From a plasmid, in the NCBI RefSeq assembly GCF_055900595.2, contig NZ_JBVWEU010000010.1: a stretch of 4,996 bases of DNA; one strand, 5' to 3'. Shown piece by piece: positions 140-4,996 of the stretch. The notes beneath the pieces are model-generated. The model searched no databases and was not told the DNA's origin. It saw nothing but the letters and a program-made list of their open reading frames with translations. Position 1 is the stretch's first letter, and each line of letters starts with the position of its first letter. A program made the translations under genes and the position numbers.

Positions 140-169
140 TTGAAGTTACAGCCTAACTACAGCTAAACT
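140..169 (+). promoter_or_regulatory. RNA I promoter (-35 TTGAAG 140-145, -10 TAAACT 164-169)
   Basis: TTGAAG is identical to the pMB1 RNA I -35 and sits in the conserved agagttcttgaag context; 18-bp spacer to TAAACT. Hexamers read directly from sequence; function inferred. Confidence 0.55.
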
Positions 170-175
170 GAAAGG

Positions 176-280
176 ACAGATTTGGTGGCAGCGGTCTTGT
201 ACACCCTGTTACCACGGTTCAGAAGTTCCCCAACTTACTGATCCTTCGAAAAACCACCTCCCCAGGTGGTTTTTTCGTTT
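176..280 (+). ncRNA. RNA I antisense copy-number control RNA (ColE1-type)
   Basis: Starts at ACAGA (cf. pMB1 ACAGTATTTGG) about 7 nt downstream of a TAAACT -10 box; ends at an intrinsic terminator (stem accacct 253-259 / aggtggt 264-270, then a T-run). Length ~105 nt and position relative to the RNA II promoter match ColE1 RNA I. Stem-loop sequences differ from pMB1. Confidence 0.75.
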
Positions 281-290
281 ACAGAGCAAA

Positions 291-2783: not shown

Positions 2784-3188
2784 TCACCGGAAAAAATCAT
2801 CCACAGAGTCGCTCCACTCATGCCCGGAAAGAGACCACACCTTGTTTATAGGGGGAGGATAACCACTCCTGCAGTACCCGTTTTTTCCCACGAAATCGAA
2901 TGCCCCGTGCGGGTATCCATTGATCAGGAGTACGCACTTCTGACTGTCTTCTGACCAGCCAATTTTAACATCAGAAGGAATGTGACCGTCTGAAACGTCT
3001 TCGGCATTGTAGATGTGTACTGCGTCCATAATCGGGTTTCCCTCGACGGACTCATCGAGCGCATAGAAATACCCGGTCCGGCCATCGTCTTCGAACACGG
3101 CGGCCAGCATGCCCTCAGGAGCGAGGCTCTTTATAACCTGTTCCTCCCCGACAACGAGCTGGGCCTGTATCGTCACTAAAATGGTCAT
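2784..3188 (-). CDS. Hypothetical protein, 134 aa, GC-rich, cargo of the Xer-bounded cassette
   Basis: ATG at 3188 with AAGGAG about 10 nt upstream on the minus strand; the ORF fills almost all of the interval between the two Xer-like sites. No motif recognised. The overlapping 70-aa minus-strand ORF (3115-3327) is judged spurious. Confidence 0.6.
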   Translation of the reverse strand: MTILVTIQAQLVVGEEQVIKSLAPEGMLAAVFEDDGRTGYFYALDESVEGNPIMDAVHIYNAEDVSDGHIPSDVKIGWSEDSQKCVLLINGYPHGAFDFVGKNGYCRSGYPPPINKVWSLSGHEWSDSVDDFFR

Positions 3189-3594: not shown

Positions 3595-3784
3595 GACTCA
3601 CCACACGATTCACCGGCGACTCTGCACTAGAGTCGTACCTAGAGTCGCCGCGACTAAAAAACAACCAAACGGGGAGTCGGGTCTAGAGTCGGGTCGTTAT
3701 TAACTCATTGTTTTTATAGCCCTGAGTCGTTACCGACTCTATGACGACTCGCCGGGGACTCTATGACGAGTCGTCATAGAGTCG
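3595..3784. repeat. Array of 12 GAGTC/GACTC motifs (11 as the hexamer GAGTCG/CGACTC), including two pairs of tandem 12-bp repeats and nested inverted repeats
   Basis: Counted directly: GAGTC at 3630, 3642, 3674, 3686, 3724, 3768, 3779; GACTC at 3595, 3618, 3735, 3746, 3757. Tandem ctagagtcg at 3627 and 3639; tandem gagtcgggtc at 3674 and 3686; 13-bp gactctatgacga at 3735 and 3757 (direct) and 3771 (inverted). Chance expectation for a 5-mer on both strands in ~190 bp is under 1. Confidence 0.7.
3757..3783. repeat. 27-bp perfect palindrome gactctatgacgagtcgtcatagagtc (13-bp arms around a central G)
   Basis: Every position i pairs with position 28-i; sits at the end of the GAGTCG array, immediately before an AT-rich stretch (3786-3860). 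Confidence 0.75.
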
Positions 3785-3982: not shown

Positions 3983-4384
3983 TCAGGATTTTTTCCAGAA
4001 TTTCCACCATGGCGCCGGGGATTCAGTTAATTTTGCCTGGTGATTTTCAAGAAGGAGCATGGCCTGTTTCAGGCTGTCAATGTGCGAATCTTTGGACAAA
4101 AGTAAAGTGTTCAGGTGTTCAATCTCCTGTTTCAGATGACGAATCACCTGTTCACACTGGTCAACAGAGGCTGTATCGCGCTGTTCAGAGACCTGTCCAG
4201 AATGGTGTTCACCCTTCAGTTGTTCAAAGGGACCAAAGACACGTAAAAGCTCTGAAGTATCTACCATTTTTGCATTGCGCTCACCGCTACAGGTGGACAG
4301 GTCACCTGCTTTAATTAACCTGTGCAGTGTTGTTCTACTCTTACCCGTCAGTCGGGCTGCCTCACTAATAGACACTCTGGCCAT
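3983..4384 (-). CDS. HTH DNA-binding protein (excisionase/MerR-like HTH_17-type N-terminus) with C-terminal coiled-coil-like region, 133 aa
   Basis: N-terminus SISEAARLTGKSRTTLHRLIKAGDLS fits the excisionase-family HTH pattern (EAAxLxGxSxxTxxRLIxxGxL); the C-terminal half is heptad-like and Q/E/L-rich. Start ATG overlaps the rop stop (TGATG at 4382-4386), implying co-transcription and translational coupling. Its antisense 148-aa ORF is Arg-rich and judged spurious. Confidence 0.7.
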   Translation of the reverse strand: MARVSISEAARLTGKSRTTLHRLIKAGDLSTCSGERNAKMVDTSELLRVFGPFEQLKGEHHSGQVSEQRDTASVDQCEQVIRHLKQEIEHLNTLLLSKDSHIDSLKQAMLLLENHQAKLTESPAPWWKFWKKS

Positions 4385-4575
4385 CAGTTACCATCCTGTA
4401 ATGCATCCAGTCTCGAGGACAGTGTACGGAAAAGATGCTCCGCATCATCGTGGAGTTTCTCACAAAGGTCGGCCTCGACATCAAGATCAAGCTCGTTAAG
4501 CTTCTCCAGCAGGAGCAGAGATTGATGCTGGATGAATTTAGCCATGTTCAGCGCTGTTTTCTGTTGTTTCGTCAT
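4384..4575 (-). CDS. rop: Rop/Rom RNA I-RNA II interaction modulator, 63 aa
   Basis: Translation MTKQQKTALNMAKFIQHQSLLLLEKLNELDLDVEADLCEKLHDDAEHLFRTL... closely matches ColE1/pMB1 Rop (MTKQEKTALNMARFIRSQTLTLLEKLNELDADEQADICESLHD..., recalled from memory), with identical length of 63 aa; located just downstream of the origin in replication direction. Confidence 0.9.
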   Translation of the reverse strand: MTKQQKTALNMAKFIQHQSLLLLEKLNELDLDVEADLCEKLHDDAEHLFRTLSSRLDALQDGN

Positions 4576-4599: not shown

Positions 4600-4996
4600 C
4601 AGTGTAGGGATGTTCTCTCTTCCGCTTCCTCGCTCACTGACTCGCTACGCTCGGTCGTTCGGCTGCGGCGAGCGGCAGGAGCATACGTTATGAAAGCTCG
4701 AGAAAACCGAGCGATCATGTAATTAAGCAAAGGGCAACGAAAGGCCGCGCCGCTGGCGTTTTTCCATAGGCTCCGCCCCCCTGACGAGCATCACAAAAAT
4801 TGACGCTCAAGTCAGAGGTGGCGAAACCCGACAGGACTATAAAGATACCAGGCGTTTCCCCCTGGAAGCTCCCTCGTGCGCTCTCCTGTTCCGACCCTGC
4901 CGTTTACCGGTGTCATTCCGCTGTTATGGCCGCGTTTGTCTCATTCCACGCCTGACACTCAGTTCCGGGTAGGCAGTTCGCTCCAAGCTGGACTGT
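4600..4996. other. ColE1-type origin of replication region (RNA II 3' domain, primer RNA-DNA transition, conserved origin-proximal hairpin region); continues at 1-330
   Basis: Near-identity by eye to pMB1 over cttccgcttcctcgctcactgactcgct.cgctcggtcgttcggctgcggcgagcgg and ggccgcg..gctggcgtttttccataggctccgcccccctgacgagcatcacaaaaat.gacgctcaagtcagaggtggcgaaacccgacaggactataaagataccaggcgtttccccctggaagctccctcgtgcgctctcctgttccgaccctgcc. The RNA-DNA switch is expected near 4735-4745 (inference, not mapped). Confidence 0.85.
4738..4996 (-). ncRNA. RNA II replication primer precursor, 3' portion up to the origin
   Basis: Continuation of the minus-strand RNA II from position 1 across the circular junction; the 3' boundary is approximate and placed by analogy with pMB1, where the primer ends near the ggccgcg..gctggcgttttt motif. 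Confidence 0.65.

Follow-up and report, generated by a model that had tools for sequence, protein, structure and literature searches.

Introduction

In the classical ColE1 inc/svir mutants, point mutations in RNA I alter plasmid compatibility. Replicons of the ColE1 family depend on DNA polymerase I and RNase H, encode no Rep initiator and have Rop as an optional component; their RNA II measures about 500–555 nt, and their RNA I acts in trans against primer formation. The specificity of the ColE1 mechanism is set by loop complementarity: the loops of RNA I and RNA II engage in a kissing interaction, Rop stabilises the complex, pairing zippers from the 5′ tail, and primer formation is blocked (PMC8683028, PMC9458437). 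ColE1, p15A, CloDF13 and RSF1030 constitute separate incompatibility groups, and compatibility can shift through single point mutations in RNA I; loop differences are nevertheless an unreliable predictor of compatibility (PMC9458437).

In this study, we analyzed the replication control region of a small plasmid, using the term window for the whole stretch of DNA examined (4,996 bases). We are fairly confident that positions 176–284 encode RNA I of a functional ColE1-family replicon nearest to CloDF13 and p15A, carrying the common, previously sequenced loop allele CUUGUAC/UCCCCA/UCCCCA and expected not to cross-react with pMB1/ColE1 or p15A. Compatibility, with CloDF13 as with the other replicons, is what we infer.

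The plasmid and its relatives

The window represents an entire circular plasmid of about 5 kb; its two ends meet within a ColE1-type origin and are joined there as in p15A-type origins. In PLSDB, 36 records match 80% or more of the window length, with the top matches reaching 99.3–99.4% identity, and these are mostly 4,991-bp plasmids from Klebsiella pneumoniae, K. quasipneumoniae, Escherichia coli and Enterobacter. One match from this 4,991-bp family, plasmid p5 of K. pneumoniae ARLG-3135, is 100% identical to the window at 130–330 and is described by MOB-suite as ColRNAI_rep_cluster_1987 and non-mobilizable. The PLSDB record NZ_CP059753.1, labelled Enterococcus faecium, holds an enterobacterial plasmid with 98.8% identity to the window, and its label is probably the result of contamination or mislabelling.

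A Pfam scan of seven open reading frames (ORFs) identified Rop, a ParA-like ATPase, DUF6530, DUF2251 and HTH_17, together with two small ORFs lacking a Pfam match. None of the seven contains a Rep domain, and no other replicon was found. The product of rop stabilises the kissing complex of RNA I and RNA II. The coordinates of the control elements and of the genes adjoining the origin are summarized in Table 1.

Table 1 Control elements and origin-proximal genes of the window plasmid
Feature	Position	Strand	Details	Basis
RNA I promoter	140–168	+	−35 TTGAAG 140–145; 17-nt spacer; −10 CTAAAC 163–168; start A176	Alignment to ColE1, pMB1, p15A and CloDF13
RNA I, antisense inhibitor	176–284	+	~108 nt; U-rich 3′ end	Rfam RF00106, RNAfold; 5′ end by homology to ColE1 ACAGUAUUUGG
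RNA I 5′ tail	176–183	+	Single-stranded	
Stem-loop I	184–213	+	Loop CUUGUAC 196–202	Fold and alignment
Stem-loop II	216–244	+	Loop UCCCCA 227–232	Rfam, fold and alignment
Stem-loop III and U-run	247–277	+	Loop UCCCCA 259–264; predicted RNA I terminator	Rfam and alignment
RNA II (primer) promoter	291–319	−	−35 TTGAGA (complement of 314–319); 17-nt spacer; −10 TAATCT (complement of 291–296)	Alignment
RNA II, 5′ part	1–282	−	First ~107 nt (282 down to 176) exactly complementary to RNA I, with the target loops	Homology
RNA II, 3′ part	4759–4996	−	Across the circular junction to the conserved ori; T-run 4759–4763 corresponds to the A-run at the primer 3′ end	
rop (rom)	4384–4575	−	63 aa; Rop family protein in near-identical records	Pfam PF01815 Rop, E 5.6e-29
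HTH_17 gene	3983–4384	−		Pfam

Identity and structure of RNA I

The original prediction identified 176–284 as an RNA I/RNA II control region, and this assignment is confirmed by a full-length match to the Rfam family RNAI (RF00106) and by a fold with three hairpins; the sequence quoted in that prediction lies at 184–231. The Rfam match spans 177–278 on the plus strand and covers the full model with 101.8 bits (E 3.4e-19; gathering score 47), exceeding the scores of CloDF13 (82.8) and ColE1 (73.8). Folding of the ~108-nt RNA (176–284) with RNAfold yielded three stem-loops at −39.8 kcal/mol, with z = −5.4 relative to shuffled sequences. Compared with other family members, stem-loop I exhibits compensatory changes at columns 15/32 (U–A to A–U) and 19/29 (C–G to G–C), and the base of stem II contains a U·U mismatch (218/242) that is absent in most relatives. 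When a consensus fold was computed by RNAalifold from a MAFFT alignment, stem I and a portion of stem III were recovered and stem II was missed, because the ColE1-type and CloDF13-type versions of stem II were misaligned; the structure comparisons were therefore based on Rfam alignments and single-sequence folds.

Promoters, RNA II and the origin

Conservation of the promoter hexamers and overall layout had also been claimed, and by homology both are indeed in register with ColE1, pMB1, p15A and CloDF13. A generic promoter scan of the window called neither the RNA I nor the RNA II promoter, as CTAAAC and TAATCT fail its −10 rule, and the promoter assignment is therefore one of homology only. 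The RNA II start was placed near 282 on the minus strand by homology to the ColE1 start GCAAACAAAAAAACC, for which the window has GUAAACGAAAAAACC. The ori motif CTGGCGTTTTTCCATAGG occupies 4753–4770, and RNA II totals approximately 520 nt. By homology, RNA I lies inside the 5′ end of RNA II in antisense orientation, and the two promoters are convergent and overlapping. In some plasmid records, short ORFs over a ColE1-type origin are annotated as “replication initiation protein”; since ColE1-type replicons need no Rep protein, these calls are likely spurious.

For transcription and copy control, we infer a scheme of the ColE1 kind. RNA II would be transcribed from the minus strand from near 282 and processed at the origin near 4759–4763 to give the replication primer. 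RNA I, a plus-strand transcript, would use its three loops to form kissing contacts with their complements on nascent RNA II, assisted by Rop, and would then zip up from its 5′ tail, thereby blocking primer formation and setting both copy number and incompatibility.

Comparison with classical replicons

The ColE1 and CloDF13 (NC_002119) sequences were taken from PLSDB, the p15A reference showed 100% identity to vectors and to natural plasmids of 2.3 kb across 234 nt, and the pMB1 RNA I was confirmed against pUC-type contaminant contigs. A pUC-type pMB1 origin, with the G-to-A change that lies immediately upstream of RNA I, was observed in contigs of a Nitrospira metagenome-assembled genome, Pseudoalteromonas and Pseudoflavonifractor capillosus, and its presence in these three assemblies is most likely due to cloning-vector contamination.

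Structure prediction and loop comparison with ColE1, pMB1, p15A and CloDF13, as originally proposed, gave three stem-loops and identified CloDF13 as the closest of these four classical relatives (Table 2). The claim that the RNA I body and its stem-loops have diverged from pMB1 is borne out, with all three loops differing. As for identity with the loops of a known family member, two of the three (II and III) are those of CloDF13 and all three are those of many sequenced natural plasmids. Loop I is unlike that of CloDF13 and is matched by none of the four classical replicons.

Table 2 RNA I of the window and of classical ColE1-family replicons
Replicon	RNA I identity to window	Loop I	Loop II	Loop III	Loops shared with window
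Window		CUUGUAC	UCCCCA	UCCCCA	
CloDF13	84.5%	CUGCGAA	UCCCCA	UCCCCA	2/3
p15A	73%	CCUCCA	UUGGUAG	CUGCAA	0/3
ColE1	65%	CUGCUGA	UUGGUAG	UUGGUAG	0/3
pMB1	65%	CUGCUGA	UUGGUAG	CUGGUAG	0/3

The window RNA I and that of CloDF13 have the same 5′ tail (ACAGAUUUGGU) and identical loops II and III; stem-loop III agrees throughout its upper stem and loop, and the hairpin architecture matches down to a bulged A in stem II. The window differs from CloDF13 at four of the seven positions of loop I, in the U·U mismatch at the base of stem II, in the lower part of stem III (one indel and one substitution) and in the RNA II promoter spacer. Seventeen differences separate the two RNAs, four of them in loop I and none in loops II and III. 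Eight form four compensatory pairs, divided equally between stem I and stem II, those of stem II being C–G versus A–U and A–U versus C–G; two others change a mismatch, one affects an internal bulge of stem I, and two fall in lower stem III. A functional RNA under structural constraint would be expected to show this pattern after divergence in one of its recognition loops. An RNA I identical to that of CloDF13 is carried by the 10,077-bp cloacin-type K. pneumoniae plasmid NZ_CP028998 (MOB-suite ColRNAI_rep_cluster_1857).

With p15A, as found in pACYC vectors, the window shares the RNA I −10 hexamer CTAAAC, the lower part of stem III (CCUUCGAAAAACC...UUUUUUCG) and p15A-like sequence across the window junction, whereas all three loops differ. 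Mechanism and layout are those of pMB1/ColE1 (pBR322, pUC), as are the −35 hexamer of the RNA I promoter and the two hexamers of the RNA II promoter, whereas no loop is shared and stem-loop III is longer in ColE1/pMB1. Duplex energies between window loops and pMB1/ColE1 loops are near zero or positive. Judged by its sequence, the window RNA I is a member of the CloDF13/p15A-like branch of the ColE1 family, for which pMB1 is the wrong yardstick.

Distribution and mosaic structure of RNA I alleles

In PLSDB, 95 records contain the 109-nt RNA I at 99% identity or better, and a further 124 contain it at 95–99% (219 together); among complete E. coli genomes, the corresponding numbers are 16 and 37 records (53 together). 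The allele is thus common, previously sequenced and ordinary, and does not represent a new specificity. Within the 4,991-bp family of Klebsiella, E. coli and Enterobacter, exemplified by NZ_CP033951 (ColRNAI_rep_cluster_1987), the RNA I region is 100% conserved. Unchanged loops within an RNA I of 97–100% identity also occur in Tatumella morbirosei pTmo1 and in an Enterobacter asburiae contig, and the same allele is found in Salmonella and E. coli on plasmids ranging from 2.8 to 7.5 kb, including a set of 3.8 to 6.4 kb. These natural plasmids differ from the window in their backbones and RNA II promoter regions. A near-identical allele is present on a plasmid named pCol440I by its submitters, this single name being the only link to “Col440I”. 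A contig scan with the 16-mer CCACTGGCAGCAGCCA returned approximately 18 ColE1-like loci among at least 120; the others were mostly chance matches in unrelated genomes, since the pattern is too short for so large a collection.

Natural RNA I alleles are mosaic, with stem-loop I assorting independently of stem-loops II and III between plasmids. Plasmids from E. hormaechei, Shigella and E. coli combine a stem-loop I bearing the loop CGCACAA with window-type stem-loops II and III, and a 2.5-kb E. hormaechei plasmid combines a window-type stem-loop I with other stem-loops II and III (UUGCC, UGCC). At least three stem-loop I modules (CUUGUAC, CGCACAA and CUGCGAA) are therefore found on one loop II/III pair (UCCCCA/UCCCCA). 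The mosaic alleles suggest module exchange or repeated diversification of a single hairpin. A more specific proposal, which we offer tentatively and hold at somewhat below even chances, is that the alleles of this branch constitute a modular RNA I series in which stem-loop I alone sets specificity within the clade and modules are swapped by recombination between co-resident plasmids. If true, this series would allow the question of which hairpin determines ColE1-type incompatibility to be tested on natural plasmids.

Natural co-residence

K. pneumoniae ARLG-3135 harbors p5, whose RNA I is 100% identical to that of the window, and p3, which carries p15A loops in its RNA I. K. pneumoniae WRC11_S471PC carries a 4,991-bp plasmid alongside a 5,251-bp plasmid with the loops CCCUCUA/UUGGUAG/UUGGUAG, and the 23-kb Tn5403 cointegrate NZ_CP091816 contains a window-type origin and a second ColE1-type origin with three different loops. 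Co-residence in an assembly is not proof of stable compatibility without selection; with that proviso, these data support a specificity separate from that of p15A-type and ColE1-type loops.

Most telling are the complete genomes of E. coli MB10 and O111:H11 88-19539, each of which contains two relevant plasmids. The first is 100% identical to the window over 181–240, which spans stem-loop I and most of stem-loop II, and 99% identical over RNA I; the second matches the CGCACAA-variant RNA I at 100% or 98% identity over the first 104–105 nt of the latter. Apart from stem-loop I and a single stem base, this variant agrees with the window. The pairing of a window-type with a CGCACAA-variant plasmid recurs in strain 2022CK-00450, with one extra mismatch. 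Such natural co-residence suggests that a difference in stem-loop I is enough to separate alleles.

Among 12 neighbouring records probed, no strain paired a window-type with a CloDF13-type RNA I. The neighbouring records were mostly a 6.1-kb ColKP3 OXA-232 plasmid, which encodes a Rep protein and has no RNA I, or large plasmids; the window-type plasmid often accompanies the ColKP3 OXA-232 plasmid. Another record, pEC25-5 (NZ_CP035128), contains rop and mbe genes and no origin, and was therefore set aside.

Both plasmids of WRC11_S471PC (one of them NZ_CP079177) are assigned to MOB-suite cluster 1987 despite their wholly different RNA I loops, and one member of the 4,991-bp family is assigned to cluster 2335; RNA I specificity is therefore not reflected in MOB-suite cluster names. 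Present replicon typing thus lumps the window allele with others able to co-reside, as the two cluster-1987 plasmids of a single strain illustrate, and RNA I loop typing would therefore predict compatibility better than cluster names. The practical value is small. As a marker, the allele identifies a group of small plasmids that is widespread among clinical Klebsiella and E. coli.

Incompatibility specificity

No loop is common to the window and pMB1/ColE1 or p15A, and compatibility with these replicons is therefore expected; a specificity distinct from pMB1/ColE1 is well supported. To this extent the distinct specificity originally proposed stands. The specificity is no new one, and a separation from CloDF13 would depend on stem-loop I alone. 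Because loops II and III and the 5′ tail are common to both RNAs, only stem-loop I sets the window apart from CloDF13. As far as sequence can indicate, the window probably has a specificity distinct from the pMB1/ColE1, p15A and CloDF13 groups, with stem-loop I alone providing the CloDF13 separation, and compatibility with CloDF13 is reasonably likely. If compatible with CloDF13, the origin could serve as a further compatible vector origin.

It is conceivable, though in our assessment unlikely, that the window allele belongs functionally to the CloDF13 incompatibility group, in which case cross-inhibition would prevent stable co-maintenance. The shared loops, 5′ tail and upper stem-loop III at 84.5% overall identity speak for such a grouping, as does a crude cofold estimate in which the heterologous duplex gain of window with CloDF13 (−62 to −67 kcal/mol, ~45% of cognate) exceeds that of known compatible combinations of ColE1, p15A and CloDF13 (−23 to −40 kcal/mol). 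The lack of a co-resident CloDF13-type RNA I among the neighbours probed points the same way, and divergence in sequence is not sufficient for compatibility (PMC9458437). However, four of the seven loop I positions and two flipped pairs in stem I distinguish the two RNAs, single RNA I point mutations can alter compatibility (PMC9458437), and at least two complete E. coli genomes contain pairs of plasmids whose RNA I differs essentially only in stem-loop I. Moreover, p15A and ColE1 have loop II in common and yet are compatible (PMC9458437).

Two further readings fare considerably worse. A previously unseen incompatibility specificity might be suspected from a loop I absent from ColE1, pMB1, p15A and CloDF13, and our literature search found no paper reporting an incompatibility test of this allele; the idea is nevertheless very improbable, as identical or near-identical RNA I sequences occur in the 219 PLSDB and 53 E. 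coli records on many backbones and in many genera, the plasmid already falls within ColRNAI_rep_cluster_1987, and a near-identical allele is present on pCol440I. Least credible of all, to the point of being nearly negligible, is a decayed control region in a plasmid replicating by other means. The U·U mismatch at the base of stem II, unlike most relatives, could be taken as a sign of decay, but promoters, three hairpins, terminator, origin and rop are all intact, the region is 100% conserved in the 4,991-bp family, no Rep protein or other replicon was found, and the Rfam score is above that of ColE1. A functional replicon, with a specificity probably separate from CloDF13 through stem-loop I, remains the preferred interpretation.

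A divergent patch at the origin

The window differs from the 4,991-bp family at 42 positions, 36 of which are concentrated in a stretch of about 285 bp (4619–4901) comprising the 3′ half of RNA II and the origin; outside this stretch, three substitutions are found in the remaining plasmid. In this particular plasmid, the ori-proximal 165 bp (4741–4905) are 97.6% identical to pMB1 and 95.8% identical to ColE1, but only 88.5% identical to the 4,991-bp family. No full-length match to window positions 4600–4920 above 88.8% was found in PLSDB. From these comparisons, the segment 4619–4901 appears to be either a patch acquired by recombination from a plasmid of the ColE1/pMB1 type or a chimera created in assembly.

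Cargo genes and a repeat cluster

Four cargo ORFs are located at 496–1554, 1584–1841, 2259–2690 and 2784–3188, and their products are a 352-aa ParA-like ATPase (AAA_31), an 85-aa protein without a Pfam match, a DUF6530 protein and a DUF2251 protein. All four are predicted products, encoded on a plasmid that is widespread in clinical isolates. Downstream of the HTH_17 gene, 12 of the 17 GAGTC/GACTC sites in the window are clustered at 3595–3783; 8.5 such sites would be expected window-wide, and none of 200 shuffled sequences reached 17. The sites are repeated in both direct and inverted orientation, with one perfect inverted repeat of 19 nt (3733–3751/3767–3785), and the cluster may constitute a protein-binding array.
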